A DNA stretch of 64,000 nucleotides. It comes from an uncultured Myxococcales bacterium (GTDB taxonomy: Bacteria; Myxococcota_A; UBA9042; DTJE01). Each line of letters opens with the position of its first letter. The stretch's first letter is position 1. Both the position numbers and the translations under genes were made by a program. Shown piece by piece: positions 29,220 through 64,000 of the stretch. The notes beneath the pieces were generated by a model that made no database searches, was not told the DNA's origin, and saw only the letters and a program-made list of their open reading frames with translations. The stretch is from assembly GCA_903847405.1 (NCBI GenBank), contig CAINDP010000034.1, positions 27,950-91,949 of the forward strand, written 5' to 3'.

Positions 29220-29224
29220 ATTTT

Positions 29225-31272: not shown

Positions 31273-31372
31273 GATCCCTGCCTCGCCGAAATCCACGTCC
31301 ATCATACGAAAAATGGGGGGACAGAGTCCACGTTTCCGGCTACCTTCGCCCCAACACCCGGAGGCACCCGAC

Positions 31373-32077: not shown

Positions 32078-32180
32078 TCGGCCCCCGAGGACTGGCAGGA
32101 ACCGGCGCGAGGATCAGGTATAATGCCGCCGGTCCGGCCCCCGCTGTTGACGGATGGGGCCGGCATCGGACGGAGGCTGG

Positions 32181-33359: not shown

Positions 33360-35432
33360 CTAGAAAGGGGTGACCACGGTCGGAGGCGGCTGCTGGGGCG
33401 GCGGAGGCGGAGGCGGCGGCGGCGGCACGGGCGGCGGCGGCGGCGGCGGCGGCGCCGGGTCGAACAGGGGCATGAAGTAGACCATTTCCGACGTCACGAC
33501 CGGCGGGGTCGTGACGGTGCCCGGCGGGTAGACCCAGTCCAGGAACTCCTGGTTCAACTTGCGGTACATCCAGTAGGACTCGATGCGCAGTTCGGTCACG
33601 CCCGGAGGCAGCACGAACGCGTAGTCGTCCTCGGTCACGCGGTGGAACTCGATCGCCCGGGTGACGATCTTTTCCTTGATCTGCCAGACGCGGTCGCGGT
33701 CGACCGGCTTGCCGTCCTCGCCCATCATGTACCCGCCCATCCGGTGGGCCTCCGGGTCGATCGCGTGGCCCGCCCCGATTTCCCCGACGTTGAACAGGAC
33801 GTTCCCCGCCTGATCGGTCACCTTCACCTTCTGCCAGGCCTCGATCAGGTCCAGGGGCCCGCCGGGGAACAGGTGATCGACGGTCGCGTTGATCGTCAGG
33901 ATCCGGAACTTGAACTCGGCGCCGACGACCGGGTCCGACATGGGCATCGCCTTCTGGACGATCCACAGCATCCGGTTCTTGGCCAGGTCGCGGGGCTCCC
34001 AGAAACTGCCCCAGCCCTCCAGTTGCACCGGCAGCAGTCCCCGGCTGAACTTCTGGAAGATTTCAACCACGTCCGGCTGCCCCAGCACCGTCGGCATGAT
34101 CGAGTTGGTTCCCGGGAAGATGTGGTTCATTTCCTTGCTGTTCAGGCCCAACTGGTCCCGCGGCTGCATGTGGCAGTGGATGCACTTCGGCTTCACCAGC
34201 GGGGTGTCCTTGGTCGGCTTGATCTGCAGGCGATGGCAGGCCTGGCAGTACTCGTCCTCGAAGTACAGCGGCTTGCGGAACACCCGGGCGTGGCCGAAGG
34301 GGTTCAGTTCGATCAGCCGGCGGTTCAGGGGCCCGATCGCGTCGCGCCCGCCCTCGTCGAACATCCGCAGGTGGTTCAGGTCCAGTTTGACCGTGATGTC
34401 GCTCTTGCGCGGATCCTCCCAGGGACGGACCGAGTCGATCTGGTGGCAGAAGGTGCAGGAGTAGTTGATTTCGGTGAAGGCGCCCGACAGCTTCTTGGTG
34501 CGGTCGAACATCATCCGGGGGTAGTGGCAGCCCCCGCAGGTGATCTGGTTGTGCTCGCCGATTTCCGACGCCAGCAGCGCGACGTTCTTCTGCAGGTACG
34601 TCGTGTGCATCGAGCGCCCGTGCGCCGATTTCGTCAGGTCGCTGAGGAGGTTCGGATGGCATCCGGCGCCGTCGCCGCAACTGTCGGTGCGGGTGGCCAG
34701 GTCCGGCTCGTTGAAATCCTTGGGCAGGATGTCCTGCTCATCGGGACCGCGACGCTCGATCGCGAACGTCGACAGGTGGAAACGGTACAGCGGCGATTCG
34801 GGGCGGTTGACCAGGTCCAGGCCCAGGATCAGGACCAGAAGGACCGCGACCGAAATCCAGATCCTGCGGTTGGCGGCGAAGACCGGCGCGGGCGCGGGAA
34901 CGTCCGCCCCGCCCGCCGACTTCGAGGCCCGCCAGTCCGCGAACGCCCAGGCGATCAGAACCGGCACGAACACGAATCCCGCCGCACGGTGCAGGACCAG
35001 CACGCCCTCCAGGCCGCGCCCGCCCAGCGCGATGCCGAACAGCGTTCCGGTGACCGCCATGACCGTGAAGGTGTAAAGGGTGACGAGGTCCAGGAACCGG
35101 GCCAGCGGCCTGCGGTGCCGGATCGCCAGGAACAGCGGCCACGCGCCCAGCACCAGCATGTTCCCCATCAAGGACGGCCAGCGTGCCGACGCGCCCGTGA
35201 ACACGGCGGTCGTGACGAGGGCCGGAAGGACCGCCCGCAACCCCAGGTCGCGCGTGGTTTCCGGCGTGCGCCGGACCAGCAGCCGGGCCACGAAGGGTAT
35301 CGAGGCCAGGATCCCGACCAGGGGGTGGAACAGCAGGTTTGCCTTGTAGACCAGCGTCCAGGACTCGGAAAACAGGACCCAGAAGCCCGTGACGATCGCC
35401 AGGAACATGAGCGGTCCGCTGCGCCTGGTCAT
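33360..35432 (-). CDS. Membrane-anchored multiheme c-type cytochrome 1
   Basis: ATGA overlap with the upstream gene; N-terminal TM block; CGDGAGCH, CGGCH, CTFCH, CQACH and CIHCH; DHLFP domain; Pro-rich tail. Confidence 0.85.
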   Translation of the reverse strand: MTRRSGPLMFLAIVTGFWVLFSESWTLVYKANLLFHPLVGILASIPFVARLLVRRTPETTRDLGLRAVLPALVTTAVFTGASARWPSLMGNMLVLGAWPLFLAIRHRRPLARFLDLVTLYTFTVMAVTGTLFGIALGGRGLEGVLVLHRAAGFVFVPVLIAWAFADWRASKSAGGADVPAPAPVFAANRRIWISVAVLLVLILGLDLVNRPESPLYRFHLSTFAIERRGPDEQDILPKDFNEPDLATRTDSCGDGAGCHPNLLSDLTKSAHGRSMHTTYLQKNVALLASEIGEHNQITCGGCHYPRMMFDRTKKLSGAFTEINYSCTFCHQIDSVRPWEDPRKSDITVKLDLNHLRMFDEGGRDAIGPLNRRLIELNPFGHARVFRKPLYFEDEYCQACHRLQIKPTKDTPLVKPKCIHCHMQPRDQLGLNSKEMNHIFPGTNSIMPTVLGQPDVVEIFQKFSRGLLPVQLEGWGSFWEPRDLAKNRMLWIVQKAMPMSDPVVGAEFKFRILTINATVDHLFPGGPLDLIEAWQKVKVTDQAGNVLFNVGEIGAGHAIDPEAHRMGGYMMGEDGKPVDRDRVWQIKEKIVTRAIEFHRVTEDDYAFVLPPGVTELRIESYWMYRKLNQEFLDWVYPPGTVTTPPVVTSEMVYFMPLFDPAPPPPPPPPVPPPPPPPPPPQQPPPTVVTPF

Positions 35433-37666
35433 GCGTCCTGACTCCCTGCCCGACGGAACGAGGCCGCCACGGCGATCAGCGAGATCCCGGCCGCGATCAT
35501 CGCGAGCCCGGAATACCCCACCAGAAGGATCGGGGGCTTGAAGCAGAACAGCGAGAAGCCGCCACCCAGCAGCCACCAGGCCAGGGCGACGTGCTGCAGT
35601 TCCTCCTTGACCCGGGCCAGCACGGTGGAAAGGGCCATCCCCGCCCCGAGGCCCGCGGCCAGCGGAGCGACATTGACCCACTGCGAACGGTGCAGTCCGT
35701 ACAGGGCGGCAAGCCCGCCCGCGAACAGCACGGCCGCCAGCGCCGCCACGATCGGCGAGCGGGCCCAGCGTCCGACGGCCAGGAAACCGATGGCGGTGCC
35801 CGCGACGAAGACCATTTCCAGGACGTTCCACGACGGTATCCCGAAGGGCGCGAGGATCAGCGCGTTGTGGCAGGCGAAGATGGTTTCGGCAAGGCCGGCC
35901 GCCAGCCCGGCCCCTGCGGCAGCCGCGCCCCACCCCAGGCCGACGCCGTTGCGGGCCCGGGTGCGACGGACGAAGGACCGGATGACCAGCAGGAACAGGG
36001 CCGACAGCCCCAGGTGGATGAACCCGATCGTCCGCTGCATCGAGTTCTGCAGGAACGGCTTGTCGTCGGAGGTCCGGCAGGATTCCCGGTCCTGGGGGGT
36101 GATCTTCACGAAGCCGCTGAGCCGCTGCAGGTGCCGGTCGGTTTCCGCGATCCGTTCCCCGTCCCGCGACGCCACGACGAAGAGCAGCGGGGAGCCGCTG
36201 AGCGGGAAGAACGACAGCGTGGTCCAGTAGACCAGCGTCGATACGTCGTCCGGGAAACTGGCGACGAACCAGTCCGCCTCGCGCGTTTCCGACGACCCCC
36301 AGTCGATGAACAGGACCCCGCCCGGCTTCAGCAGGCGATCGAAGATCAGCCGCGTCCCCTCCTCGGTCAGCAGGAAGTGCTCGGCGAACACGTAGCTGCG
36401 GGGCAGGATGTAGGTCTTGGTCCCGATGCCGCTGTAGAACACGTAGTCGTACTTCTTGCCCTGGTCCGCCAGTTCCTCGAGGTTCGTCCGCCAGTCCCCC
36501 GTCAGGACCAGGGAGGTCGGCCGCGACATCGCCTTCCCCAGGTACTCCTCGTGGCCCGGGCGCAGGAATTCGGCGATCTTCGGGTCGTACTCGATGGTCG
36601 AGTTGTTGTTCTCGCCGCCCAGGAACAGTTCGATCGCACGGACGTTGGTGGCGATGGACCGGCCGACGTCGATCACGTCCAGGGGCTGCCGATCCGCCGG
36701 CGGAATCACGGCCGCGCCCGAGGCTGCCGGGGCCGTTGCGACCGGGGACTTCCCGAGCCCCTCGCCGACACGCTCGGGCTCCAGGACCACCTTGTTGCCG
36801 GTGCCCTCGCCGTGCTGCGACACCTTGTGGAAGGGGTCCAGGATCGCCTTGTACATGAACTCGGTTTCGGCCGGGACCCAGTCGGTGTCCCTGCACGAGA
36901 ACATCATCATGATGTTGTCCACGACGACACCCAGGCAGCGGTCGTCCATGAACGTGATGAAGTCGCACTTGACGTCGTGGCCGTAGCCGCCGTCCAGGTA
37001 CTTGTACTCGGTCAGGCCGAAGTTGAAGAACGTCCGCTGCGGATAGACCTGGAACAGCGTGACGACGGTCACGATCGCGGCGACCCCGACCGCCGCCGGA
37101 ATCGCGCGCAGCAGCAGCACCAGCGCCAGGCACAGGCCGCCCGCGAACAGCAGGTGCGGACCCAGCGGGCTGAACCCGTAGGCCAGGCCGACACCCAGGG
37201 CCTGGCCCACCAGGAACGCCCCGATCGGCCCCCGAAGGCGTCCGGCCCCGGCCAGGATCGAACCGAACCCCCACCCCATCGGCAGGAACAGCGCCGGCAC
37301 GACCAGCACCGTGATCAGCAGCGAGATCTGGTTCGCGATGCCGGATTTCGGCAACGGAACGGGGTAGTAGAGCTTGCTCATGATGGCCATGCTGGTGAAG
37401 TCGCGGTTGGTGAAGGCGGCATAGACGACGGCCAGGGCCGCAACCGCCATCACCGCTTCGCCCAACCGCCCCAGCCGGCCCCGCTTTGCGGCCACCCCGA
37501 ACGCGAACAGCGTCATGGCCAGCCCGATTTCCAGGGCGGACCCGAAACTGACCATCATGAGGGGTTCGAGGACGCTGATGTGGGAAATCAGGACGAACCC
37601 GGCAACCAGACCCAGGGCAGCCGCCCGCCACCACACACGCACGGAACCCGCATCGCCCGACGGCAT
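35429..37666 (-). CDS. Membrane protein with a central spermidine-synthase-like (class I SAM-fold) domain
   Basis: TM blocks at both ends; IEYDP, LLTEEG...LLKPGGVL and TSDDKPF motifs typical of TM-fused aminopropyltransferase-like proteins. Confidence 0.65.
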   Translation of the reverse strand: MPSGDAGSVRVWWRAAALGLVAGFVLISHISVLEPLMMVSFGSALEIGLAMTLFAFGVAAKRGRLGRLGEAVMAVAALAVVYAAFTNRDFTSMAIMSKLYYPVPLPKSGIANQISLLITVLVVPALFLPMGWGFGSILAGAGRLRGPIGAFLVGQALGVGLAYGFSPLGPHLLFAGGLCLALVLLLRAIPAAVGVAAIVTVVTLFQVYPQRTFFNFGLTEYKYLDGGYGHDVKCDFITFMDDRCLGVVVDNIMMMFSCRDTDWVPAETEFMYKAILDPFHKVSQHGEGTGNKVVLEPERVGEGLGKSPVATAPAASGAAVIPPADRQPLDVIDVGRSIATNVRAIELFLGGENNNSTIEYDPKIAEFLRPGHEEYLGKAMSRPTSLVLTGDWRTNLEELADQGKKYDYVFYSGIGTKTYILPRSYVFAEHFLLTEEGTRLIFDRLLKPGGVLFIDWGSSETREADWFVASFPDDVSTLVYWTTLSFFPLSGSPLLFVVASRDGERIAETDRHLQRLSGFVKITPQDRESCRTSDDKPFLQNSMQRTIGFIHLGLSALFLLVIRSFVRRTRARNGVGLGWGAAAAGAGLAAGLAETIFACHNALILAPFGIPSWNVLEMVFVAGTAIGFLAVGRWARSPIVAALAAVLFAGGLAALYGLHRSQWVNVAPLAAGLGAGMALSTVLARVKEELQHVALAWWLLGGGFSLFCFKPPILLVGYSGLAMIAAGISLIAVAASFRRAGSQDA

Positions 37667-37820
37667 TGGACCACCCCGCGTTCGCCGGACGGTATCGAAT
37701 CGCCACAATTGCGTCAAGCGAGGCGGCCCGCGAGGGCGCAGGGCCCGCGTGGTTGACGCATGGGGCTCCCCTTCAATAGAATCCGCCCATTCCGCGGTTC
37801 GGGCCGCCGGAGAACCAACC

Positions 37821-39721
37821 ATGCCGGACCTCGCCTCCCCCGGGAACGGAGGGCCCTCGGGCCCGGCCGTGCAGCAGCCCCGCACCGATCCCCGCCGGGC
37901 CGTCCGGAAGGCCCTCGACCGGGCCCGGTCGGCCCGCGGCAAGGTCGCCGACCTGTTCGCGCCGCTGCAGTTCCTGCCCGCCCCGTTCAAGGTGGCCCTG
38001 ATCGCCGTGGATTCGGCCGCCGTCACGGTGGCCGGCTACTGGTTCCTGCGGGCACTGCTGTTGCGGCCGACGGGCTACTCGACGAACCAGGAGGCGGCGG
38101 TCATCGGCGTGGGCCTGGGGCTCCTGCTGGTCCTGTCGCACCTGGTCATGCCGTTCAAGAAGGAACGGACGTGCGGCAACCTGGTCCTGCAGTTCGTGAT
38201 CTGGTTCGGGCTGGCCGCCGCGTTCACGGCCCTGGCGGACTCCGCGATCCGGCCGGGCTGGGACTGGTCCTGGCTGCGCGTCGAAATGATCAAGATTCCC
38301 TTGTGGTTCGGCGTGCTGGTCCCGCTGATGCCGGTGTTCACGGCGATCGTGGCCGTGGTCGCGGCGGCGCTGGCGTGGATCGCCCTGGAGCACCCGAAGA
38401 GCAACTGGGTCCGGTGGGTCCCGACCGCGGCCCTGGTGGCGCTGGTCTACATGGCCCACACGCGGTTCCCGGCGCCCGGCGCCTACGAGCCCGAGGGCTC
38501 CGAACCCCTGGCGATCCGGTTTTCGCTGCTGTTCTGCAGCCCGCTGTTCGTGATCGTGGGGCTGCTGTGGGCCCGGCGTCGCCTGGCCGCCTTCCGCCTG
38601 GTGCCCGCGGCGTTCTACTGCGCGATGATCGGGCTGAACTACATGGGCCTGCTGCCCGTCCACGACGTGTCGGAGATGCTCCCCCAGGCCAGTTCGACCG
38701 ACCACACGATCTTCCAGCAACCGGGCGTCAGCCGGTTCTTCCCGCCGGCCTCGACCCGACCCGACCAGTCCTTCCTGTTCCTGCGCGACATGGCCAGCGT
38801 GGACAACCGCCTGTACGTCAGCTACGGCCCGACGTGCGGCGTGTTCGGGTTCGACCTGGCGAACGGCGCGGAAACGAACCTGGAGTTCGAGGGCACCATG
38901 CGGCACATGGTGGTGGCGCCGACGGCAACCACCTGTGGGGCCTGAACTGGCAGCACGGCCGGTTCCTTTCCCTGAACACCCAGCCCTCCCCTTCGATGGC
39001 GTGCGCCCAGGATCTGTTCGGGATGGACCTGAAGACGCCCTGGTGGATCATCGCCCAGAACGATCGGATCTTCGTGTCGAACGTCACCCCGCCGGTCCTG
39101 GCGGAACTGACCCCGTCCAGCCCGGGCCTGGGCTGCCCCCTGACGCTGAAGCGATCGATCAACTTCCACACGAACGGCTACACGGGCTTCACCGACGGCG
39201 CCTTCGCCATGCACCTGGACGAGGCCCGCAACCGCCTGTACGTGGTGGTCGGGATGCTGGAAGGCACGACCATGATGGGCCTGCTGGAAATCGACCTCGA
39301 CACGTTCAAGGTGGTGCGCGAACTGCGCCTGCCCGCCGGCAGCACCATGGAAGCGGTTCCCGAGCGGGGCACGGTCCTGCTGCCCGCCTACTGGGGACCC
39401 GAAATCTACGAGGTCAACCTGGAGCAGATGGCGATCGTGAACACGTTCACGGCCGTGCCCAGCGTGCTGGCCCTGCGCTATGACCCGAAGCGGAAGCTGA
39501 TCTTCGCGCTGTCGCGGGCGGCGGGGCAGATGGCCGTGATCGACTACGCCACGGGGAAGACCCTGCGGACCGACAGCGTCGGGGCCAAGCCGGAAGCGAT
39601 CTGGCTGGATCCCGACGGGTCGCGGATGTTCCTGGGCAGCGGCCTGGGCATCCTGAAGTTCGACATCGACACGTTCCTGCCGCCGGGCGATCGTTCGACG
39701 GCCGGCGCCGCGGCGCCCTGA
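37821..39721 (+). pseudogene. TM + YVTN/YncE-like beta-propeller protein with a one-base frameshift near 38920
   Basis: One frame reads ...RHMVVAP and stops at 38945; another frame continues DGNHLWGLNW...DEARNRLYV...YDPKRKLIF. Adding one base at gcgcc|gac restores VVAPDGNHLW. Could be a sequencing error. Confidence 0.65.
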
Positions 39722-39725
39722 CCGG

Positions 39726-41777
39726 TCACGGCACGGCCGGCACCCCCTGCACCACCGGGAACTGCCGCAGGGTCCGGGCCACGAAGGGCGCCGGGTTCGT
39801 GACGTAGGGCCCGTACGCCCACTCCCAGTAGTCCTGGTTCAACTTCCGGTACCGCCACTCGGCTTCCACGTTCAGCAGCCGGCCGCAGTCCGTCGCCAGG
39901 CGCATTTCGTAGGCGTCGATCCCGACCGCGCCCGGAAGGATTTCGCGGTCCAGGACCTTTTCGCGGATCTGCCAGACCCGGTTGTGCGTCAGGACGTGAC
40001 CGTCCATGCCGATCACCTGGCCGCCCATCTGGTGGCTGCCCGCCTGCACCTGGTTCGCCGCGTCCAGCCCGCCGCTTTCGAACAGCAGCCGGCCCGTTTC
40101 GTCGGTCACCCGCACCGCCAGCCACACTTCCTGGAGGTCCATTGCCGACGAGGGGAAGGCGTGGCCGACCCCGACGTTCCGGGTCAGGACCCGGAAGGGG
40201 ATCGTCGTCCCGGGCGCCAGGGGTCCGTCGAACTCCACCGTCATGTCCAGGTAGTCGAAGTCGCCCAGGCGCTCCACGTCGTCCCGCACGCGCGGAAAGA
40301 CCTGGGTTCCGTAGGCGAAGCCCAGCGCGCGCTCCAGGAACTGGCCCTGCATCCAGCGTTCCGTCAGCCGCGCCACCTGCGGCGTGCCCAGCAGCGCCGG
40401 GATCACCGTGTTCGATCCCAGGAACAGGTGGTTTTTCGCGCGGCCCGACAGTTCCAGGTCGCTGCGGGGCTCCATGTGGCACTGGACGCAGGTCCGGCCC
40501 TGGACGACCCCCCGCAACTGCAGGTGGTGGCAGGCCATGCAGAAGCGGTCCTCGGATTGCAGCGGGTTCTTGAACGCGCGGCCGTGGGCGCGGACGTTCA
40601 GGCGGATCAGCAACCCCGTCAGCAGGTCCATGTCCCCGCCCGCCCGCTCGGCGTCCAGGAACATCGAGAGGTGGTCCGCGGGCAGGTCGATGGAATAACT
40701 GGACTTCCGCGGGTCCTCGGACTGCGAGACGTCGGAAATGACGTGGCAGAACACGCAGGACATGTTTTCGCGCTGCACGTAGTCCTCGGTGCGGCCGCCC
40801 CCGGTGAACAGCACGGTCGGCGTGTGGCAGCCGGCGCACAGCACCTGGTTGGGACGCCCGATCTCGGTGGCCAGGAGGGCCAGGTTCTTCTGCAGGTGCG
40901 GCGTGGCGTACGAGGCATGGTGGACCGAGTTCCGGTGATCCTCCAGCAGGTCGGCGTGGCACTGGTCCGTCGCCCCGCAACTGGCGCTGATGTCCACCCA
41001 CCGGGCGTCGATCGGGAACGGCACGACGTCGCGCTCCTCGGGCAGGCGCCGTTCCAGGGGGATCGTGGACAGGTGGACCGTCGCCTCCCGGGCCGCCGGA
41101 GCGGGCTGCCACAGCCGGCCGATCCCGTTGACCGCCGACGGGACCCCGACCGCCAGCGCGGCCGCCACGCCCACCGCAAGGGCCAGTTCCCGGACCCGGC
41201 CGCGCACCCCGCCGACCAGCGCCAGGAAGCCGACGAGGGCGGCGAGGCCCCCGGCGACGGAGTGGAAGTACAGGACCACCGCCAGCGACCGGCCGCCCCC
41301 CAGGACCAGGAACGACATCCCCGAAACCAGCGCCATGCTCCACGCGGCCAGACCGGCCGCCTGGGCGCCGGTCCCGGGAACGTCCAGACCCGACAGATCC
41401 ACGCGCCGGCCCCGGACGAACAGGACCAGGCAGGCGGCCGCCATCAGGGCAAACAGCCGCCCCGAAAAGACGTTCACCTCGTCGGCCGTGAAGTAGGGGT
41501 AAGGGAACACCCGGAAGCACCCCAGGGTGACCAGGGCGGCGAAGGCCAGCAGCAGTTCCGGCGACAGGCCCGGCGTGTGCGAAACCAGGTCCGCCGACGC
41601 CTTGCGGATCGCCCAGGCCGCCACCCCGATCCCCAGCAGCGGGTGCAGCAGCAGGTTCAGACGGAAGTAGGGGCTCCATGAGGCGGACACCACGTTCAGC
41701 AGGCCGGACAGAACGACCAGCAGGAACGCCGCCTTCCATCCCCAGGCGACCCAGGCCCGCAACAGGCGCTGCTTCAT
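39726..41777 (-). CDS. Membrane-anchored multiheme c-type cytochrome 2
   Basis: TM block; CGATDQCH, CAGCH, CVFCH, CMACH and CVQCH; GHAFP domain; clearly paralogous to 33360-35432. Confidence 0.88.
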   Translation of the reverse strand: MKQRLLRAWVAWGWKAAFLLVVLSGLLNVVSASWSPYFRLNLLLHPLLGIGVAAWAIRKASADLVSHTPGLSPELLLAFAALVTLGCFRVFPYPYFTADEVNVFSGRLFALMAAACLVLFVRGRRVDLSGLDVPGTGAQAAGLAAWSMALVSGMSFLVLGGGRSLAVVLYFHSVAGGLAALVGFLALVGGVRGRVRELALAVGVAAALAVGVPSAVNGIGRLWQPAPAAREATVHLSTIPLERRLPEERDVVPFPIDARWVDISASCGATDQCHADLLEDHRNSVHHASYATPHLQKNLALLATEIGRPNQVLCAGCHTPTVLFTGGGRTEDYVQRENMSCVFCHVISDVSQSEDPRKSSYSIDLPADHLSMFLDAERAGGDMDLLTGLLIRLNVRAHGRAFKNPLQSEDRFCMACHHLQLRGVVQGRTCVQCHMEPRSDLELSGRAKNHLFLGSNTVIPALLGTPQVARLTERWMQGQFLERALGFAYGTQVFPRVRDDVERLGDFDYLDMTVEFDGPLAPGTTIPFRVLTRNVGVGHAFPSSAMDLQEVWLAVRVTDETGRLLFESGGLDAANQVQAGSHQMGGQVIGMDGHVLTHNRVWQIREKVLDREILPGAVGIDAYEMRLATDCGRLLNVEAEWRYRKLNQDYWEWAYGPYVTNPAPFVARTLRQFPVVQGVPAVP

Positions 41778-44817: not shown

Positions 44818-44949
44818 CGCAACCCGGGGGAAGGACCGCGCTACTCTACTGAAATCCCGGACCGCGGGCAACCGGGCGCCCGGGGCCCGGGACGTGTCGA
44901 CGGCCCCCGGATTTCCCACTAGAATCCCGGGCGGACGGCGAGGCGCTGC

Positions 44950-46002: not shown

Positions 46003-46014
46003 ACCCGCCGGGGC

Positions 46015-48797: not shown

Positions 48798-49056
48798 CCC
48801 CGTCGAGCCCCCGTCGTTCCAATGGTCCCGCACGTACCCTGTGGATTCCGGTTTGCGCGCGGATGACGGTACCAGCCCCGGCACGGGCTGTCAACGCGCC
48901 CCGGGGTCTGGTTTCCCAATGGCATCGGGGACATCCTCGCTTCCGGCGGGGTGCCCCTGCGGGACCTTCTGGACGCCGGTCCCGGTCGTGCTACCCTTTC
49001 CCCCGGACGACGGATCCCAGACACCCCCGGTGCCGCATCCGGGGCGGGAGTGCGCA

Positions 49057-50346: not shown

Positions 50347-50371
50347 CCCCGCCCGGGCACCCGCACCCTCG

Positions 50372-50400
50372 TTGACTTCGCCATGCACGGAACGTAGCAT
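50372..50400 (+). promoter_or_regulatory. Sigma70-like promoter, probably driving a leaderless transcript
   Basis: TTGACT-17 bp-TAGCAT ends 6 nt before the ATG at 50407; no RBS. Confidence 0.5.
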
Positions 50401-50406
50401 CCGCCC

Positions 50407-54360: not shown

Positions 54361-54507
54361 GTGACCCCCGATCCAGCCAGGATGCCAGCGCCACCCGCGC
54401 GGTGCGCCAGTGTAGCAGATTCCCCCGGGCCACGGCCACGCCCGCGGGGCCCCGGGGCATTGACCCGACCCGGTGGAACACGGATACTCGGCCGGACGGA
54501 GGACGGC

Positions 54508-56256: not shown

Positions 56257-58877
56257 TCCGTGACGAACACATGCCGGCGCGGGCGCTGGCGATTTCCGCC
56301 GTGGACGCCGTCGCCCTGACCTGCCTGGCCTGGCTGGCCGTCAACCCGTTGATCACCGCCGTCAGTCCCCGCCTGACCCCCGGGATCCAGGCCCTGATGC
56401 TGGGCCACGGCACCTTCGGCGTCGTCATGATGCCCCTGATCGCGGCCTTCGTGCCCCTGCGGATCTGGGCGGCCCGGGGGTTCACCCTCCAGGCAGCCTG
56501 GGGGACCACCCGGACGCTGGCCGCCATCGGGTGGCCCCTGGCCGCTTACGTGGCCGCGTCCCTGCTGTGCACGTGGCCCGAAATCGCCTGGCCCCTGGTC
56601 GTCGGGACGGCGTTCGTCGTGTTCCAGGCCCGCCGCCGGTCCCGGCCGGCCTGGCGGCGGCTGATCGACGTCGCGATCGTCCTGCCCCTGTACGCGGTGC
56701 TGTACCAGCACACCCGCAACAGCGCCGAGTTCCTGGCGGCCCTGGCCCTGCTGGTCCTGGAACTGGACTTCGCCGTCAAACCCCGTTGGAAACTCTGGAT
56801 GGCGCCCTACCTGGTCGTGATGCTGGCGTTCATCACGGAAAACTCCAGCCGGAACGGCGAGGGGGTCAAGGTCGCGACCTACGTCCTCGGGGCGCTGGGC
56901 CTGGCGCGGCTGGCCTGGGTGCTGGGGCGCGAAATCCTGTCCCCGGCCAGGGATCCGAAGCACCTGGCCGGGATCACGGCCACCTCGTTCCTGCTGATGG
57001 CGATCTTCGCGACCATGATGGCCGGCGGCATCAACGCGCTGAAGTTTTCCCACTACCTGCCGCCAATGGACTACCTCCACCACGCCTCGGCCGTCCTGTT
57101 CGTCGTGGCCCTGGCGGCGCACCTGGTGACGATCCGGGACCGCCTGCCCCGGGGACCGTGGACCGCCCGCCGCCTGCTTCCGCCGCTCCTGGGCGTCCTG
57201 GTCACGACCGCCTGCATCGCCGGGTTCGAGGTGCGGAACGTGGCCGATCAGGACGCCTTCGTGACGCCGATCGAGGACCTGCAGACCCTGCCCGCACGCA
57301 TGGAAATCGCCCGGCCCAGCGTCCACAGCGCCCTGACCGGGATGTACCTGCCGTCCCGGGATCGCTGGTACGAACCCCGGGCCCGCAGTTGCGGCGACGG
57401 GAGCCTCTGCCACGGGGAACTGGTCGCCCAGCACGACATTTCGGCCCACGGCCGGGCGATGACCAACGAAACGTTCAAGGCCCAACTGGCCGAGTTCATC
57501 CACCTGGAGGGCCGGGAGGCGGCGGACTACTGCCTGGCCTGCCATGCCCCCCTCGGCGTCATCCATTTCCCCGGCGACGGCTCCCGGGGGCCCGTGATCG
57601 ATCCCCTGACCACGACCGAGCCCGCGTTCATCATGGGCGTGTCGTGCGTCGCCTGCCATCGGGCCGAACCCGAACGGGACCCGTCCCGGATCGGCAACGC
57701 GTCCCTGACGATCCGCCCCCTCTGGCTGGAGCCCGACCGCTACCTGGGCGAGGAAAGCCCCGACGGGAACCGCCTGCACAACACCCTGATCATCGCCGCC
57801 AACGGCGTGCACCGACGAACGTACCGCGTTCCCAGGCCGGACTGGAACGCCATCTGCGGGGCCTGCCACCTGGTCAAGCTGCCGTCCACCCTGGCCCACG
57901 ACGGGGTCCCGCGGATCGCCGCCGACCACTTCCAGTCCTTCATGGATTCGCCCTTCGCGGCCGCGGGGGTGACCTGCGCGGACTGCCACCAGCAGCGGTT
58001 CAAGACCCGCCTGAACGCCTACAACACGGTCGATCACCACTACCTGGGCACGGGCGCCTCGCTGCCGTACGTCCCGGGCGACGTGTTCCCCACGCGGGAG
58101 TCCGTCGGCATCCTGGCCTTCCTGGGCGAAAGCCACGCCGCGGACGGCACGGTCCCCCAGGACCCGGATCCCCAGGTGAAGGCCCGGGCCTTCCGCAAGT
58201 TGACCGACGGCTTCCTGAACGGCATCGGCGACGTGTCGCTGCAGGCGGCGACCCCCGACGAACTGCCGGTCTGCCTGGACACGCTGGCCGCGAAGGCCGG
58301 CCGGTACGTGGTGCTGGACGAGCGGGCCCCCGGCACCGACTGGAGCACCAACGGGGGCCTGGCGCACGTGGACCTGCTGACGACGACGGTGCGGGTCGAT
58401 GCGACCGCGGCCGGCGCGATCGACCTGACCGTCCGGACGGTGAACAACTGCATCGGGCACACGTTCCCGTCCGGCGGCGGGATCAAGGGCTACCTGACGG
58501 TGGAGGTCCTGGACGCCCGGGGCGCGGTCCTGGCCCGGCACGGCGGCGCGGGTCCCGACGGCCTGCCGGTGGAAGCAACCACGCTGCTGGGCACCCGAAC
58601 CACGGACAAGGACGGCCAGCCGATCCGGAACCGCCGCTTCTGGAACGTGGACCGGATCGTGTACCAGCGCCTGCTGGTGCCCGGCGCGGAATCCAGCGAC
58701 GCGATCCGCCTGGCGCTGCCGCAAGGCGCCGTCCCGGCCCGGGTCACGGCCGAGTGGATGTATCTGAGGCCCGAGTTCTTCCGCAACCGCGAGCGCGGCG
58801 TGGGCGATCCGGTCCCGCCCATCCGCATCGGGTATGACGAAACCGACGTTCCGCGCCAGGAGGCCCCTTCGCGATAG
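56253..58877 (+). CDS. Membrane-anchored multiheme c-type cytochrome 4
   Basis: ATGA overlap; large TM block; CGDGSLCH, CLACH, CVACH, CGACH and CADCH; GHTFP domain. Confidence 0.88.
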   Translation: MIRDEHMPARALAISAVDAVALTCLAWLAVNPLITAVSPRLTPGIQALMLGHGTFGVVMMPLIAAFVPLRIWAARGFTLQAAWGTTRTLAAIGWPLAAYVAASLLCTWPEIAWPLVVGTAFVVFQARRRSRPAWRRLIDVAIVLPLYAVLYQHTRNSAEFLAALALLVLELDFAVKPRWKLWMAPYLVVMLAFITENSSRNGEGVKVATYVLGALGLARLAWVLGREILSPARDPKHLAGITATSFLLMAIFATMMAGGINALKFSHYLPPMDYLHHASAVLFVVALAAHLVTIRDRLPRGPWTARRLLPPLLGVLVTTACIAGFEVRNVADQDAFVTPIEDLQTLPARMEIARPSVHSALTGMYLPSRDRWYEPRARSCGDGSLCHGELVAQHDISAHGRAMTNETFKAQLAEFIHLEGREAADYCLACHAPLGVIHFPGDGSRGPVIDPLTTTEPAFIMGVSCVACHRAEPERDPSRIGNASLTIRPLWLEPDRYLGEESPDGNRLHNTLIIAANGVHRRTYRVPRPDWNAICGACHLVKLPSTLAHDGVPRIAADHFQSFMDSPFAAAGVTCADCHQQRFKTRLNAYNTVDHHYLGTGASLPYVPGDVFPTRESVGILAFLGESHAADGTVPQDPDPQVKARAFRKLTDGFLNGIGDVSLQAATPDELPVCLDTLAAKAGRYVVLDERAPGTDWSTNGGLAHVDLLTTTVRVDATAAGAIDLTVRTVNNCIGHTFPSGGGIKGYLTVEVLDARGAVLARHGGAGPDGLPVEATTLLGTRTTDKDGQPIRNRRFWNVDRIVYQRLLVPGAESSDAIRLALPQGAVPARVTAEWMYLRPEFFRNRERGVGDPVPPIRIGYDETDVPRQEAPSR

Positions 58878-58890
58878 GAGTTCACCGTCG

Positions 58891-60135
58891 ATGCTGACGA
58901 CGCACCTGCTGCTGGCCCTTGCCACGATTCTCGTGATGTCGCTGGTCTTCGGCATGCTCTTCCGGAAGATCGGCCAACCTCCCGTCATCGGGGACATCGT
59001 GGCCGGGATCGTGCTGGGTCCTTCGGTCCTGATGGCGCTGTGGCCCGATGTCGGCGACTTCCTGTTGCCCGCGGCGGTCGGCCCGGACCTGGGGGCCGTC
59101 ACCCACCTCGGCGTGATCCTCTTCATGTTCCTCGTCGGGCTGGAATTCAACTCGGAAGCGCTGCGCAGCCGCGCACGGACGATCATCGCCGTTTCGACGG
59201 CGGGCATCGTGGCGCCCTTCGCCCTGGGCGCATTGCTGGCCGTCGGGCTGTACGCCAGCGTCGCCCCGAAAGACGTCCCCCTGCCCATCTTCGCGATGTT
59301 CCTGGGCGTCGCGATGTCGGTCACGGCCTTCCCGGTCCTGGCCCGCATCCTGGCGGAACAGGGATTGACCCGCACCTCGCTGGGCACGATGGCCCTGGCC
59401 TGCGCCGCGGTGGCGGACATGGCCGCCTGGTGCCTGCTGGCCCTGGTCCTGGGCCTGGCCAACGACGCACCCCGGGATACCCTGGTCACCTTCGGGCTGG
59501 CCGTCGCCTACACGGTCGGCATGCTGGCGATCGCACGACCGCTGGTTCACCGCTGGTCCCGGCGGGTCGGGGACGACGGCCCCAGTCCCACGGTCCTTGG
59601 GGGCGTGATCCTGCTGCTCCTGCTGTCCGCGCTGGCCACCGACCAGATCGGGATCCACCCGATCATCGGGGCGTTCCTGTTCGGGATCCTGTTCCCCAGC
59701 GAGGGCAACCTGGCGCGCCTGCTCAAGGCACGGTTCGAGACGCTGGTCACGACGCTGTTCCTGCCGGTGTTCTTCGTCCATTCCGGCATGCGGACCGACC
59801 TGGGGCTGTTGTCCGGGGGGGCCGAGTGGCTGATGTGCGGCGCCATCGTCCTGGTGGCCTTCGCCGGGAAGTTCGGCGGCAGCTTCGTCGCGGCGCGATG
59901 GACGGGCCTGGACGACCGCCAGTCGGCGGCCCTGGGGGTCCTGATGAACAGCCGCGGCCTGGTGGAACTGATCGTCCTGGATATCGGCCTGGAAATGGGC
60001 ATCCTGTCGCCCGTGCTGTTCACGATGATGGTCGTGATGGCCCTGGTGACCACCTTCGCGACGACACCGTTGCTGCGCCTGCTGCTCCCGGCGCGTTCGA
60101 CCAGCCTCGATCGGCCCGCGCAGCCCGTGACTTGA
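58891..60135 (+). CDS. Cation:proton antiporter (CPA2/Kef-type)
   Basis: QPPVIGDIVAGIVLGPS, SVTAFPVLARIL and LMNSRGLVEL motifs. Confidence 0.9.
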   Translation: MLTTHLLLALATILVMSLVFGMLFRKIGQPPVIGDIVAGIVLGPSVLMALWPDVGDFLLPAAVGPDLGAVTHLGVILFMFLVGLEFNSEALRSRARTIIAVSTAGIVAPFALGALLAVGLYASVAPKDVPLPIFAMFLGVAMSVTAFPVLARILAEQGLTRTSLGTMALACAAVADMAAWCLLALVLGLANDAPRDTLVTFGLAVAYTVGMLAIARPLVHRWSRRVGDDGPSPTVLGGVILLLLLSALATDQIGIHPIIGAFLFGILFPSEGNLARLLKARFETLVTTLFLPVFFVHSGMRTDLGLLSGGAEWLMCGAIVLVAFAGKFGGSFVAARWTGLDDRQSAALGVLMNSRGLVELIVLDIGLEMGILSPVLFTMMVVMALVTTFATTPLLRLLLPARSTSLDRPAQPVT

Positions 60136-60214
60136 CCCCGCCCACCTCAAGTTCGATACTTTCGCCCGCCTGGGAAGCCGGGAACCTCCCTCCAGATCGG
60201 CAGCAGGGAACGCC

Positions 60215-62650
60215 ATGGGCAACCGCAAGATGGCCAGGAGCACGCAGAGGCTGATCTCCGCGCTCTTCGGGCTGGTGTCGGTGGTCGTCTTCCTGATGTT
60301 CGGAATCATCGCGCCCGCCACGATGATCGAAAACACCGTGGACGCCCTGAACGGCGAGGGGCCCGCCCTGGTGTTCATGTTCATCGGCGCCGCGGCCTTC
60401 ACCCTCAGCTTCGTGTTCCTGATCCTGCTGAACCGGCTGCGGCTGGCCATCATCCACCAGTTCGGCGGCGGCACCCAGGCCCCCGACGCCCCGGACAAGC
60501 CCGCCCGGATCTACAAGGTCGTCGGCGAACCCGGCCGGGTCGAGCGCTTCCTGCTGAAGGCGCTGATCGGCCTGTCGGTGGTGCTGTGCATCACGGGATA
60601 CGGCCAGTACTCGACGGTGACAATCGAGGACCTCTACGTCCAGCTCACGTACCTCCACACGGCGTTCGGGCTGCTGACCTTCCTGCTGCTGATGCCCTAC
60701 CTGTTCGTCCTGTCGCGCCGCCACTACGGCCTGAAACTGCAACTGCTGATCACCCTGTACCCGCTGATCTTCGTGATCATCCTGCAGAGCCCGGGTCCGT
60801 TGCTGGCCACCTTCATCGCGATGAACATCGTGATCCTGCCGCTGGGCATCTTCCTGCTGGCCCGGAACGAAACGCCCGGCCAGCGACGCCCCGCGCTGAT
60901 CGTGGCCGGCATCGCGCTGTTCGGGTTCGTGCTGGTCACCATGACCGGATCGTTCCCGGTGGTCGATCCCATCAACCTCCGGTTTTCGTTCCGGCATCGC
61001 AACCTGCACGCCTATCTGTCGCCGATCGCGGTCCTGCTGCCGCTGTATTTCTACTGGATTTCCCGGAAGGGACGGGACCTCCCGACCATCGCGACGACGC
61101 GGCTGCTGTACGCGTGCGGCCTGCTGATCTTCGCCGGCTCCGTCGCCGGCGCGTCGATGCACTGGGTCAAGGAATTCCGCCTGGAGGATCTGCGCCAGAA
61201 ATCCCAGATCCGGTCCGCCCCGCTGGTCAGCGAAACCGGGGACGATCCGGGCACGCTGCAGCCGGGCGTCCTGTCCGACGACACCTTCTGCGGGACGTGC
61301 CATCCCATCCCGATGCGCCAGTGGGCCCGCAGCATGCACGCCAATGCGGCGCGCACCGTCACGTTCCAGGCCGTCTTGACGTCGCTGGTTCAGCAGCACG
61401 GCCCCCAGATCGCGCTGGATTGCGCCGCCTGCCACGACCCCGAGGTGGCGCTGCTGAAGCGGCCGGAACTGCTGACGGACCCCGACCACCTGGCCCGCAG
61501 CCAGGGCGTCAGTTGCCGCACCTGCCACTACATGAACCTGACGGGCGAAAAAAACGCGCAGTACGGCCTGCAGATCCCCCGCAGCGATTTCTTCCCGGGC
61601 ACCCTGGAGGAGCGGCGCCTGCGGATCCTGGTGGGCGTCCAGGAGCACATCAACGACGTCACCAAGCCGATCACCCGGGACGGCAAGCAGTGCTCCGCGT
61701 GCCACTCCCTGCGGGCCACCCGGAAGGGGCACGAGATGATCCCCCTGGACAACGTCACCTCCTTCGAAAAGTCGTCCTTCGGCCCGAAGGTGCGGTGCCA
61801 GCGCTGCCACATGCCCCACATCGTGAAGGACAAGCACAGTTATTCGTGGATGGATCACTCGTTCTTCGGGATCCAGCAGGAACTGTCCCAGATCGTCATC
61901 GGGCAGACCCCCGAGATGCTGGACGAAATCCGGCTGTTCGAGGAGGACACGGGGCGGTTCCTGGCGGGCGAACTGCCGGTGCTGAACCTGATGGAAGCGA
62001 CGATGGACGAAACGTTCAAGTCCTACCGCTTCACGGACTACAAGTACCGCCTGCTGTCGGTCCTGGAGTCCATCAAGGTCGCCACCTACGGCAGCCATTT
62101 CTACATGTCGATCGGCCGGGCCCAGCGGAAGGGCGACAGCCTGGACCTGGTCCTGACGACCCTGAACATCAACGCCGGGCACGACTTCCCGTCCAGCCTG
62201 TTCGCGAACATCAACAACGTCTGGTTCGAACTGGCCGTGACCGACGCCGCGGGCGCCGAGGTGTTCCGATCGGGGTTCGAGCAGGACGATCTGACGCACC
62301 GGCTGGGCCGCATCGAGATCGACGGGAACGGGCAGGCGATCCAGCCGCGGGACTCCCTGAAGTACGAAACGATCATCAACAAGAAGTTCCTGGAGCCCGA
62401 CAAGGAGTACGAAGACGCCTGGTCGGTCCCCCTGGGCCCGGAAGTGAAGTTCCCCCTGACGCTGACCTACAAACTGCAGTACCACCGGTACAACGACGAC
62501 TTCGCGAAGTCGTTTTCGACCCCCGAAAAGGCCTGGTCGTTCCCGATCCGCACGATTTCGACGGAAACCTTCACCATCGAATCCTGCAGCCGGGAAGCGC
62601 CCGGGGACTGCACGCTGACCCCCCGCCCCGACTTCGATGAAAAGCAGTAG
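60215..62650 (+). CDS. Membrane-anchored multiheme c-type cytochrome 5
   Basis: TM block; five canonical motifs CGTCH, CAACH, CRTCH, CSACH and CQRCH; GHDFP domain. Confidence 0.9.
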   Translation: MGNRKMARSTQRLISALFGLVSVVVFLMFGIIAPATMIENTVDALNGEGPALVFMFIGAAAFTLSFVFLILLNRLRLAIIHQFGGGTQAPDAPDKPARIYKVVGEPGRVERFLLKALIGLSVVLCITGYGQYSTVTIEDLYVQLTYLHTAFGLLTFLLLMPYLFVLSRRHYGLKLQLLITLYPLIFVIILQSPGPLLATFIAMNIVILPLGIFLLARNETPGQRRPALIVAGIALFGFVLVTMTGSFPVVDPINLRFSFRHRNLHAYLSPIAVLLPLYFYWISRKGRDLPTIATTRLLYACGLLIFAGSVAGASMHWVKEFRLEDLRQKSQIRSAPLVSETGDDPGTLQPGVLSDDTFCGTCHPIPMRQWARSMHANAARTVTFQAVLTSLVQQHGPQIALDCAACHDPEVALLKRPELLTDPDHLARSQGVSCRTCHYMNLTGEKNAQYGLQIPRSDFFPGTLEERRLRILVGVQEHINDVTKPITRDGKQCSACHSLRATRKGHEMIPLDNVTSFEKSSFGPKVRCQRCHMPHIVKDKHSYSWMDHSFFGIQQELSQIVIGQTPEMLDEIRLFEEDTGRFLAGELPVLNLMEATMDETFKSYRFTDYKYRLLSVLESIKVATYGSHFYMSIGRAQRKGDSLDLVLTTLNINAGHDFPSSLFANINNVWFELAVTDAAGAEVFRSGFEQDDLTHRLGRIEIDGNGQAIQPRDSLKYETIINKKFLEPDKEYEDAWSVPLGPEVKFPLTLTYKLQYHRYNDDFAKSFSTPEKAWSFPIRTISTETFTIESCSREAPGDCTLTPRPDFDEKQ

Positions 62651-62701
62651 GGAAATTCGGGGACAGTCGTGTAGCATTGCTCGCCTTTCTGTCGCCGGGA
62701 G

Positions 62702-63724
62702 ATGGAAGCAGTGGAGTCCCCGCGGATCTCGGTGATCATCGCCCACTCCCGGGACGTCGTCCGGCACACCCTCGATTCCCTGGCCCGCCAGACCTTCGAC
62801 CACCGTGCGTTCGAGGTGTTCGTGATCGGCGGGGCCCCCGAGCACGTCACCCCCGACGCCTACGACTTCGCGGTGCGCTACTTCCGCTGCGACGACATGA
62901 ACCCGTCCCGGCGGCGCAACATCGGGATCCAGGCGTCGAAGGCCGAAATCATCGCCTTCATCGACGACGACGCGACGGCTGATGACGACTGGCTGAAAAA
63001 CGCCATGCGGCTGTTCGACGAGGATCCGTCCCTGGGCGTGATCGGCGGCCCGACCTTCCTGCCCCCGGGGGCGGGCCTGGGCGAGCACCTGACCTACAAG
63101 ATCGGCCACGCGGGCTTCTTCGGGAACGGGCACGAAAACCTGAAGGCGGATTCCGACGTCCTGAAGAAGGTGGTCGGGTACATCACGTCCTGCAACATGC
63201 TGGTCAACCGGGCCCGCCTGTCCGTGGACAACCATTTCGAAAGCCAGATCGGCTACGGCGGTGAAGACACGCTGTTCATCTACCGGGCCGCGCACCTGCT
63301 GGGATGCCGGGTCCTGTACAGCATGTCGGTGATCGTATACCACTCGCGCAAGGCGTTCGGATTCCGCTACCTGGCGACCCGCTTCCGGTACCGGGTGAAC
63401 AACGGGATGATGCTGTGGGCCCGTCCCGGCATCTACCTGGGCAACAAGCGCTTTTCCGCGGGGCTGGCCGTGGGCGGCACCCTGGTGGCAGGGGCGCTGA
63501 TCCGGCCCATCCTGCTGCCGTTGATGATCGTGCTGCACCAGTTCATCTCGCTGGGCTTCGCACTGAACTATCTGAAGGAAGACTACCGGCTTACGCTGCT
63601 GTTCCCGCCGGCGCTGCTGATCCAGCACATGGTCTACTTTTGCGGCATCGTGGTCGGATTCGTATCCTTGATCCACCCGGCCCAGCGGGCGCGGGTGCGG
63701 CAAATCCGGGCGAATTTGAAATGA
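62702..63724 (+). CDS. Family 2 glycosyltransferase with C-terminal TM helices
   Basis: ISVII, RNIG, AFIDDD and GED motifs. Confidence 0.88.
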   Translation: MEAVESPRISVIIAHSRDVVRHTLDSLARQTFDHRAFEVFVIGGAPEHVTPDAYDFAVRYFRCDDMNPSRRRNIGIQASKAEIIAFIDDDATADDDWLKNAMRLFDEDPSLGVIGGPTFLPPGAGLGEHLTYKIGHAGFFGNGHENLKADSDVLKKVVGYITSCNMLVNRARLSVDNHFESQIGYGGEDTLFIYRAAHLLGCRVLYSMSVIVYHSRKAFGFRYLATRFRYRVNNGMMLWARPGIYLGNKRFSAGLAVGGTLVAGALIRPILLPLMIVLHQFISLGFALNYLKEDYRLTLLFPPALLIQHMVYFCGIVVGFVSLIHPAQRARVRQIRANLK

Positions 63725-64000
63725 ACGTGCTGTTCGCCATCCCCCCCTGGAGCTTCCCGGAAATCTACCCCGCGTCCATGAGCCGCGCCGGCGGCCCCCT
63801 GGGCGATCGCTTCGGGACCATCACGGGCGCCACCGAACCCCTGGGCATGCTGTACATGGCGGCGGTGCTGCGCCGCGGCGGCTTCCGGCCCGCGGTCCAG
63901 GACGGGTTCAACATGCAGCCCGCGGACTGGCTGAACGGGATCATCGACGCGCACCCCGACGTGCTGGCCCTGACCCTGTCGGCGTTCTCGTGGGGCAAGG
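63721..64000 (+). CDS. B12-binding radical SAM enzyme 5, N-terminus only (truncated by the window end)
   Basis: Not in the ORF track. ATGA overlap with the GT2 stop; MNVLFAIPP...EPLGMLYMAAVLRRGG...PDVLALT is a typical B12-binding-domain start. Confidence 0.75.
   Translation, partial: MNVLFAIPPWSFPEIYPASMSRAGGPLGDRFGTITGATEPLGMLYMAAVLRRGGFRPAVQDGFNMQPADWLNGIIDAHPDVLALTLSAFSWGK

Follow-up and report, generated by a model that had tools for sequence, protein, structure and literature searches.

Membrane pentahaem cytochrome genes interleaved with radical SAM genes in an uncultured Myxococcales bacterium, a possible membrane lipid or glycolipid tailoring cluster

The genome of an uncultured Myxococcales bacterium from lake water (GenBank assembly GCA_903847405.1; GTDB lineage Bacteria; Myxococcota_A; UBA9042; DTJE01) carries a gene cluster of at least 35 kb in which genes encoding membrane-bound pentahaem cytochromes are interleaved with genes encoding radical S-adenosylmethionine (SAM) enzymes and sugar-related proteins. 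The window analysed here is a stretch of 64,000 nucleotides of contig CAINDP010000034.1 (positions 27,950 to 91,949 of the forward strand, numbered from 1 below), and its segment 33360–64000 holds the larger part of the cluster, which is truncated by the contig end. The G+C content of the window is about 70%, and raw open reading frame (ORF) lists are therefore crowded with spurious frames. Genes were mapped by frame analysis of the third-position GC content (GC3) together with a codon-model gene caller trained on the genome, followed by Pfam searches. By GC3 frames and the codon-model caller, 19 genes were called between 33360 and 64000, counting C/D once:

33360–35432, minus: A, membrane pentahaem cytochrome of the core type, always paired with B (haem motifs, weak Pfam cytochrome matches)
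35429–37666, minus (start at 37636 or 37666): B, about ten membrane helices and a putative central spermidine-synthase-fold domain
37821–39721, plus: C/D, a single membrane beta-propeller gene, split in the record (C 37821–38945, D 38996–39721)
39726–41777, minus: E, membrane pentahaem cytochrome
41774–43321, minus: F, short membrane pentahaem cytochrome without the C-terminal immunoglobulin (Ig)-like domain
43318–44817, minus: G, B12-binding radical SAM enzyme (PF02310 53.9 bits, PF04055 84.3 bits)
44950–46002, plus: H, membrane protein of the YdjM family, lengthened considerably at its C terminus (PF04307 85.2 bits)
46015–47397, minus: I, class-B-like radical SAM enzyme, B12 domain undetected by Pfam (PF04055 63.5 bits)
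47394–48797, minus: J, B12-binding radical SAM enzyme (PF02310 and PF04055)
48919–50346, plus (start at 48919 or 49057): K, DegT/DnrJ/EryC1 sugar aminotransferase (PF01041 207.9 bits)
50407–52038, plus: L, B12-binding radical SAM enzyme (PF02310 and PF04055)
51956–53041, minus: M, SPASM/twitch-type radical SAM enzyme (PF04055 76.9 bits, partial SPASM 23.3 bits)
53038–54360, minus: N, Tes/GDGT-MAS-like radical SAM enzyme (Zn_ribbon_HMPTM, PF23545, 50.9 bits; PF04055 71.7 bits)
54382–56256, plus (start uncertain, 54382–54595): O, membrane beta-propeller protein, paralogue of C/D (no Pfam match)
56253–58877, plus: P, membrane pentahaem cytochrome of a rare subfamily (model and haem motifs)
58891–60135, plus: Q, CPA2 cation:proton antiporter (PF00999 190.4 bits)
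60215–62650, plus: R, membrane pentahaem cytochrome with five CXXCH motifs
62702–63724, plus: S, family 2 glycosyltransferase (GT2) with two predicted C-terminal membrane helices at residues 260 and 306 (PF00535 50.9 bits)
63721–64000, plus: T, B12-binding radical SAM enzyme, with its 5' 280 nt in the window (full gene 63721–65142; PF02310 and PF04055)

Only housekeeping genes (RNase PH, glycine cleavage, FolD, PBP1 and PFK) lie to the left of 33360, and this point was therefore taken as the left border of the cluster. Past 64000 and up to the contig end, the remainder of T is followed by U, encoding another B12 radical SAM enzyme, by V, encoding a membrane propeller-like protein, and by a cytochrome fragment. 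Outside the window, the cluster thus gains one more radical SAM gene (its eighth), one more propeller gene (its third) and its sixth cytochrome; no flippase gene, for which the first-pass annotation made from the sequence suggested searching there, and no family C glycosyltransferase (GT-C) gene are among them. The genes are packed tightly into eight transcription units. Start and stop codons overlap as ATGA at seven junctions (B-A, G-F, F-E, J-I, N-M, O-P and S-T), including all four overlaps reported in the first-pass annotation and three further ones (J-I, N-M and F-E). In the G-F-E unit, which ends with E, one radical SAM gene is tied to two cytochrome genes through such overlaps, and the genes O-P-Q-R-S-T-U-V form an eight-gene run on a single strand. 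L and M, on the plus and minus strands, are convergent, and their 3' ends share 83 nt (51956–52038).

The five cytochromes A, E, F, P and R are indeed paralogues, as had been proposed, with 23–36% identity to E (alignment A1). All five share a layout of 4–8 predicted membrane helices in the N-terminal part followed by five haem-c motifs, the first of which takes the form CXXCH in R and CX5CH in the other four; in A, the motifs lie at residues 252 (CX5CH), 299, 326, 396 and 417. A beta-rich, Ig-like C-terminal domain with a GHxFP motif ends A, E, P and R and is absent from F. In a structural model of P (pLDDT 73.6), residues 370–866 resemble the pentahaem cytochrome c552 of Thermochromatium tepidum (PDB 5ze8), with a Z score of 17.6 and an rmsd of 4.6 over 345 of 385 residues aligned, and Foldseek matched the same modelled region with an E value of 3.2e-8. 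According to the available part of PMC11976967, the 5ze8 protein belongs to a pentahaem family together with Geobacter ExtKL and Gsu2801, and this c552/ExtKL family is discussed there in the context of electron transfer. The cluster cytochromes share with these proteins the five haem-c motifs, the predicted c552 fold and the subsequent Ig-like domain, the latter with the exception of F. Unlike c552/ExtKL, they add an N-terminal domain of 8–9 helices with invariant His residues, and four of the five have the CX5CH form of the first motif.

Two membrane His residues of this helical domain are invariant across 36 diverse family members. In the P subfamily, four conserved membrane His residues are placed on two helices with i/i+18 and i/i+14 spacing, and in F the membrane His residues are found at positions 104, 122, 168 and 182. 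Read from these conserved residues, the helical domain probably holds one or two b-haems. When modelled alone, it reached a pLDDT of 78.4, and its comparison with the dihaem cytochrome b561 CybB (5oc0) gave a Z score of 9.2 over 149 of 174 residues, which is below the noise level of helical bundles (VIA-align). CybB ranked first among the membrane proteins matched and was the sole membrane haem protein among the generic helical-bundle matches, and the likeness of the modelled domain to it is a lead at most. Redox modules that join membrane haem b with multihaem c include CbcL in Geobacter and the Hmc, Tmc and Dsr complexes of sulfate reducers. By analogy with these systems, the cluster cytochromes might use b-haems in the membrane to link their periplasmic c-haems with the quinone pool or with iron-sulfur proteins of the cytoplasm, the CybB match being the sole hint in this direction.

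The overall architecture of these cytochromes is common, with 431 representative proteins matched at E ≤ 1e-10 by profile A2, which in a sequence search of the PDB found nothing below E 0.098; Atlas clusters sharing the overall predicted fold carry the label 'cytochrome c-552/4 domain' proteins. The P subfamily is rare: 16 relatives were found in 5.8 billion proteins, and several of them are paralogues from the same genome. No related locus was found in genome contigs when P was used alone as the query, and neither of the other two species of the genus yielded a P-type cytochrome. At residue 70, P itself has Arg in place of a His that at least 90% of its subfamily share and that is among the four candidate b-haem ligands, and residues 152–205 of P form a unique insert that is poorly modelled.

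Among full-length relatives of these cytochromes, five are interrupted by a single in-frame TGA (G280:C50, G280:C113, G068:C62, G217:C38 and G047:C330, from four genomes of family f24). Judging from the reading frames, these could be selenocysteine-containing multihaem cytochromes.

Seven radical SAM genes lie in segment 33360–64000, five of the B12 class (G, J, L and T and, less certainly, I), one Tes/GDGT-MAS-like (N) and one of the SPASM/twitch type (M). Both PF02310 and, after it, PF04055, the domain order of class B enzymes, were detected in G, J, L, T and U. The five B12-binding enzymes counted in the first-pass annotation therefore include four with both domains and I, in which PF04055 was detected and PF02310 was not, and which aligned over residues 29–367 with the B12-class model of AprD4 at 94 bits, below its cut-off. 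The best NCBIfam match of G was HpnJ, with 152 bits against a cut-off of 577.6, and the same model ranked at or near the top for G, L, T and U, with scores of 97–152 bits. On the whole, the B12 enzymes are closest to the HpnJ, AprD4 and BchE types, with all scores below cut-off. In M, the SPASM domain (PF13186) scored 23.3 bits against a cut-off of 21.5 and covered profile positions 1–49 of 67, and five Cys residues lie in the C-terminal part; such a half SPASM domain fits the 'twitch' form.

The Tes-like enzyme of the first-pass annotation is N, which carries the zinc ribbon and the CX3CX2C core of Tes: the Zn_ribbon_HMPTM domain scored 50.9 bits (cut-off 27), and the CX3CX2C motif is found at residue 102. 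Among NCBIfam models, N matched TrsS with 176 bits and Tes (NF045702) with 160.5 bits, both below cut-off, and its residues 5–311 matched residues 14–332 of the solved tetraether synthase (PDB 7tol) with an E value of 4.9e-46. It is the sole Tes-family gene in the genome, and orthologues were found in 7 of 401 sampled genomes of the phylum.

Several matches below cut-off, of the B12 radical SAM genes to ApyD and rSAM_ocin_1 and of M to PqqE and sactipeptide maturases, would be expected if these enzymes modified proteins or peptides, either in a pathway akin to those of ribosomally synthesized and post-translationally modified peptides (RiPPs) or by acting on the cytochromes and propellers post-translationally before export. 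An M50 peptidase adjoining G-N-L in genome G217, from a third family, and the presence of six cytochromes beside six B12-class radical SAM genes on the contig studied here point the same way. However, the intergenic gaps are all about 260 nt or less, with no small ORF between genes, and there is therefore no room for a precursor-peptide gene; none was found, so that the precursor peptide gene beside maturases that marks a RiPP cluster is lacking. Domains of polyketide synthases or nonribosomal peptide synthetases were not seen among the cluster genes by Pfam either, in agreement with the first-pass annotation. Protein modification would also leave the DegT and GT2 proteins unexplained and sits poorly with the similarity of N to a lipid-acting enzyme (7tol) and with the unequal numbers on another contig of the genome, C216, where two cytochromes accompany six radical SAM genes. 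We consider modification of proteins or peptides improbable.

The sugar-related and accessory proteins listed in the first-pass annotation (DegT, GT2, YdjM and an antiporter) were all confirmed by Pfam. K scored 207.9 bits against a PF01041 cut-off of 19.8, and the models of PseC, LegC, ArnB and DesI gave 116–134 bits, all below cut-off. For H, no NCBIfam match was obtained, and Q matched TIGR00932 with 161 bits, also below cut-off.

The membrane protein B has about ten helices around a soluble domain and matched no Pfam or NCBIfam model. Its likeness to spermidine synthases comes from Atlas matches and from relatives: the ten best-match Atlas clusters with an assigned family all (10/10) share the family or clan of the top match, PF01564 (Spermine_synth), and the same model (cut-off 22.9) scored 31.5 bits with a B paralogue on C216 and 33.1 bits with a B homologue in G259, a genome from another family of the same class. 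The close B family was found in 3 of 401 genomes, with two distant matches (G054 and G131) that have no cluster neighbours; A and B are adjacent in all four loci of the close family.

The propeller proteins O, C/D and V, likewise without Pfam matches, belong to a large paralogous set with 4–6 N-terminal membrane helices and a beta-propeller-like C-terminal part. Two such proteins had been proposed for the segment, and these are O and C/D, the latter being divided in the record only. C aligns with residues 236–348 of O and D with residues 436–604, colinearly, and the orthologue in G001, a sister species of the same genus, is a single ORF of 590 aa, the DNA alignment showing one gap. An extra C behind position 38918 was present in contigs from three other sequencing runs of two studies (X1, X2 and X4), with depths carrying it of 8.31/8.31 in X1, 9.3/9.3 in X2 and 4.5/10.8 in X4; the site was not covered in X5. 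C and D as two genuine genes, or as a pseudogene, were therefore rejected in favour of a deletion of 1 nt near 38918 in the record, which is probably an assembly or consensus error. Within D, two extra C bases at 39526–39528 appeared at about half the contig depth in runs X1 and X2, on a contig of 392 nt, and these may represent a paralogue or a strain variant.

The gene families of the cluster recur in the same genome. We detected 12 ORFs of cytochrome paralogues, plus fragments on two short contigs (12–14 cytochromes), together with no fewer than nine membrane propellers and 38 ORFs that resemble B12 radical SAM genes. Nine of the 12 cytochromes have a cluster-type B12 radical SAM gene at a distance of 10 kb or less, as compared with 2.1% of the 4097 called ORFs, these nine occupying only three loci (C34, C216 and C25). 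At the C44 cytochrome locus, no cluster-type B12 radical SAM gene is nearby, while C111 and C112 are too short for the cytochrome neighbourhood to be judged. On C216, a B-like gene with an A-like cytochrome is accompanied by five B12 radical SAM genes, and a P-like cytochrome and four membrane propellers are encoded there as well. On C25, genes for a cytochrome, a GT2 enzyme, a B12 radical SAM enzyme and a membrane propeller are found in an order that mirrors R-S-T, and its GT2 matched PgfS with 216 bits and ArnC with 143 bits over its full length, below cut-off. All three families are strongly expanded in this genome, and tandem cytochromes break the assembly at C111, at C112 and at the end of C34.

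Such an expansion could also provide substrate range to a catabolic system, in which radical SAM/B12 enzymes together with haem and propeller proteins would degrade a recalcitrant lipid or a methylated polymer. The Rieske-type oxygenase subunits encoded in the G259 and G217 clusters, and a RoxA-like protein with two haems in the latter, would be in line with this. Nevertheless, radical SAM enzymes use SAM stoichiometrically and would make poor bulk catabolic enzymes, the DegT and GT2 proteins are biosynthetic, and no transporter, hydrolase battery or downstream catabolic genes were seen in the cluster by Pfam scans. Catabolism seems very improbable to us.

In other genomes, different parts of the gene set were found together. 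The sister species G001 carries an island with A (67% identity), B (63%), an intact C/D (58%) and R (55%); two more membrane propellers and five B12 radical SAM enzymes are also encoded on it. This island, of about 20 kb (G001:C69, approximately 103–124 kb), lies within a backbone that is otherwise syntenic with contig C135 of the genome studied here. In G259, a cluster of about 16 kb encodes G (57%), N (54%), I (36%), J (40%), an O-like propeller, a DegT protein, a B-like protein and an A-like cytochrome with 30% identity to A, and thus shares an eight-gene core (G, N, I, J, O, K, B and A) with the cluster; it also includes genes for a short-chain dehydrogenase/reductase (SDR), a Rieske-type oxygenase subunit and a membrane protein, and ends at the GlnRS gene. 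In G217, a G orthologue (57%) adjoins N, as in G259, and is followed by an L homologue (35%); between this G-N-L group and a J-I pair, which is conserved in both G259 and G217, lie genes for multi-helix membrane proteins and for a different c-type protein with two haems. On a 4-kb contig of G011, N (67%) adjoins M (58%). Among long metagenome contigs, two of three (L019 and L022) pair a cytochrome with B12 radical SAM genes, and L020 does not.

Considering the operon packing, the interleaving of the two modules and the recurrence of the eight-gene core across families, it is reasonable to treat the cluster as one functional unit in this lineage. Given that N is Tes-like, that the B12 enzymes resemble HpnJ, AprD4 and BchE, and that DegT and GT2 proteins are encoded alongside, its chemistry would be directed at a hydrophobic or sugar substrate at the membrane. 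Because the c-haems are periplasmic, as we assume the propeller domains to be too, radical tailoring and sugar attachment in the cytoplasm would be combined with a step in the periplasm to which haem b/c would conduct electrons. Our preferred interpretation, to which we assign a probability of roughly 0.4, is that the cluster tailors a membrane lipid or glycolipid and includes a dedicated haem b/c membrane redox module. The first-pass annotation had proposed a pathway for a heavily modified glycolipid or surface glycan; its division into radical chemistry in the cytoplasm and haem-based steps in the periplasm is what the protein families imply, while the nature of the product is suggested by family resemblance, namely that of the DegT and GT2 proteins, the ArnC/PgfS-like GT2 of C25, the Tes-like N and the HpnJ/AprD4-like radical SAM enzymes.

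What the data establish are the genes present, their families, the operon packing, the fold of the haem domain in the periplasm and the conservation of the set elsewhere. The scheme that we propose goes further: the nature of the substrate, each of the reactions and the binding of haem b, as well as where electrons flow and to what end, are those we infer. The region would be most of an accessory biosynthetic or tailoring cluster with a membrane-embedded substrate, be it a lipid chain or a sugar carried by a lipid or a polyprenol, and its two conserved modules would be placed at the cytoplasmic face (module 1) and in the membrane with soluble parts in the periplasm (module 2). N would activate inert alkyl carbons for C-C bond formation or similar chemistry. 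Methylation, cyclisation or rearrangement of the substrate would fall to the B12-class enzymes (G, I, J, L, T and U), and a further radical step to M. K could make an amino sugar that S would then attach. The cytochromes, at least five in number, would conduct electrons between the periplasm and either the membrane or the quinone pool, by way of five c-haems on the c552-type fold and the b-haem helical domain, and would serve the periplasmic propellers (C/D, O and V) and B, all of which might handle the same substrate.

Various observations weigh against lipid or glycolipid tailoring by a single system. None of the eight radical SAM proteins reached the curated cut-off of any NCBIfam model, and N was rejected as a canonical Tes, its 160.5 bits comparing with a cut-off of 450 and covering only profile positions 2–308 of 486. 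Pfam scans of the cluster revealed neither a flippase or GT-C gene nor any gene of fatty-acid, glycerol, ether-lipid or isoprenoid metabolism. In B and its G001 orthologue, two motifs with a role in the family, one acidic and one Gly-rich, are replaced, though kept in paralogues (alignment A6), and the helical domain of the cytochromes had no significant structural match, Foldseek giving none at E ≤ 0.001. In addition, the broad cytochrome family is common, with profile A3 matching 269 of 401 genomes of the phylum, and no cluster gene lies near it in 16 of 20 loci. G001 has no N at E ≤ 1e-40 despite its membrane module and B12 radical SAM genes, and in G217 the nearest cytochrome of the family is about 12 kb from N.

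Several of these observations would be explained by our main rival hypothesis, namely that two unrelated systems share one island, a periplasmic redox or respiratory module and a separate radical SAM/sugar natural-product pathway, interleaved by rearrangement. The first of these would consist of the cytochromes, the propellers and B, and might be a quinol-linked oxidoreductase or a chain for electron transfer. Cytochromes without cluster partners, in the 16 phylum loci and on L020, the occurrence of cytochromes, B and propellers without N in G001, and the lack of a neighbouring cytochrome of the family beside the radical SAM core of G217 and G011 would all be natural under such a hypothesis, as would the variation in gene order among this genome (G000), G001 and G259 and the relationship of the periplasmic domain to the c552/ExtKL family, which is discussed for electron transfer in the available part of PMC11976967. 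On the other hand, ATGA overlaps join G, F and E, S and T are on the same strand run as P and R, and cytochrome, GT2 and B12 radical SAM genes are found together again in C25 and L022. Both modules occur together in three genomes from two families, the radical SAM cluster of G217 contains a different c-type haem protein, and no porin, quinol dehydrogenase or terminal reductase was seen nearby by Pfam scans. The expectation of the first-pass annotation that these families co-occur in other genomes thus held for the close subfamilies (the G001 island, the eight-gene core of G259 and the radical SAM core of G217) and mostly did not for the broad cytochrome family. We regard two unrelated systems as rather unlikely, and modification of proteins or catabolism as less likely still.

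Returning to membrane lipid or glycolipid tailoring, no characterised pathway was matched in our searches with models or of the literature, as the first-pass annotation had supposed. The combination of radical SAM, sugar and membrane haem proteins is previously undescribed as far as our literature searches show; no description of it was found there, nor any joining multihaem cytochromes with B12 radical SAM clusters. The term 'multiheme' is absent from the available part of a 2026 review of lipid radical SAM enzymes (PMC13459092), and a peat cytochrome preprint deals, in the part available, with porin-cytochrome clusters.

The archaeal tetraether pathway, with Tes/GDGT-MAS and B12 radical SAM ring synthases, likewise sets a zinc-ribbon Tes-family enzyme beside B12 radical SAM enzymes, and in the available part of PMC8941075 a role in making branched tetraethers is proposed for bacterial homologues of Tes. 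Unlike that archaeal pathway, the cluster has an N that misses the Tes cut-off and does not extend over the C-terminal stretch of the profile, has no ether-lipid or isoprenoid genes, and includes membrane cytochromes, which are not part of the archaeal pathway. A more specific form of lipid tailoring, in which membrane-spanning or radically remodelled lipids resembling branched tetraethers, with coupled, methylated or cyclised chains and an amino-sugar head group, would be made with the cytochromes as dedicated transmembrane electron conduits for the radical enzymes and their periplasmic partners, is in our estimation quite improbable.

Hopanoid side-chain tailoring, in which HpnH, the GT2 enzyme HpnI, the B12 radical SAM enzyme HpnJ and HpnP/HpnR have their roles, is echoed by the GT2 gene adjoining a B12 radical SAM gene and by the aminotransferase. 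The hopanoid pathway was rejected, because no hopene cyclase (TIGR01507) was detected in this genome, which is 96.7% complete, and HpnJ (TIGR03471) scored at most 152 bits against 577.6. Polyprenol-phosphate sugar systems, with the roles of ArnB/ArnC/ArnT, GtrABC and PgfS, are echoed by the DegT aminotransferase, by the PgfS/ArnC-like GT2 of C25 and by membrane proteins that combine several helices with periplasmic domains. A system of the Arn or Gtr type was also rejected, since no GT-C enzyme or flippase was seen, scores were below cut-off, and S is more distant from these systems than the GT2 of C25.

Elsewhere in the window, the segment immediately to the left of the cluster (27375–33278) holds genes for an amidohydrolase, a SPASM radical SAM protein (29225–30415), an unknown protein of 268 aa, RNase PH and an FkbO/RidA-like protein (32181–33278). 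At 445–5158, a gene for a DUF2194 protein adjoins that for a BcsB-like cellulose-synthase subunit.

If the two modules were independent, the locus would still define a rare conserved radical SAM core (G-N-L, J-I, M and DegT) and a widespread uncharacterised cytochrome architecture, with a helical His-bearing domain, a c552-type pentahaem domain and Ig-like domains. Little is known of the enzymes by which membrane-spanning lipids of bacteria are coupled, methylated and cyclised, and these lipids are widely used climate proxies; a conserved bacterial cluster with a Tes-family enzyme and many B12 radical SAM enzymes is a concrete and testable candidate for their synthesis. If true, the link between cytochromes and radical SAM enzymes would be a new route for supplying or removing electrons for radical chemistry, and if the cytochromes do act as conduits for lipid-modifying enzymes, they would offer the first example of radical SAM lipid chemistry with an electrical connection to multihaem cytochromes of the periplasm.

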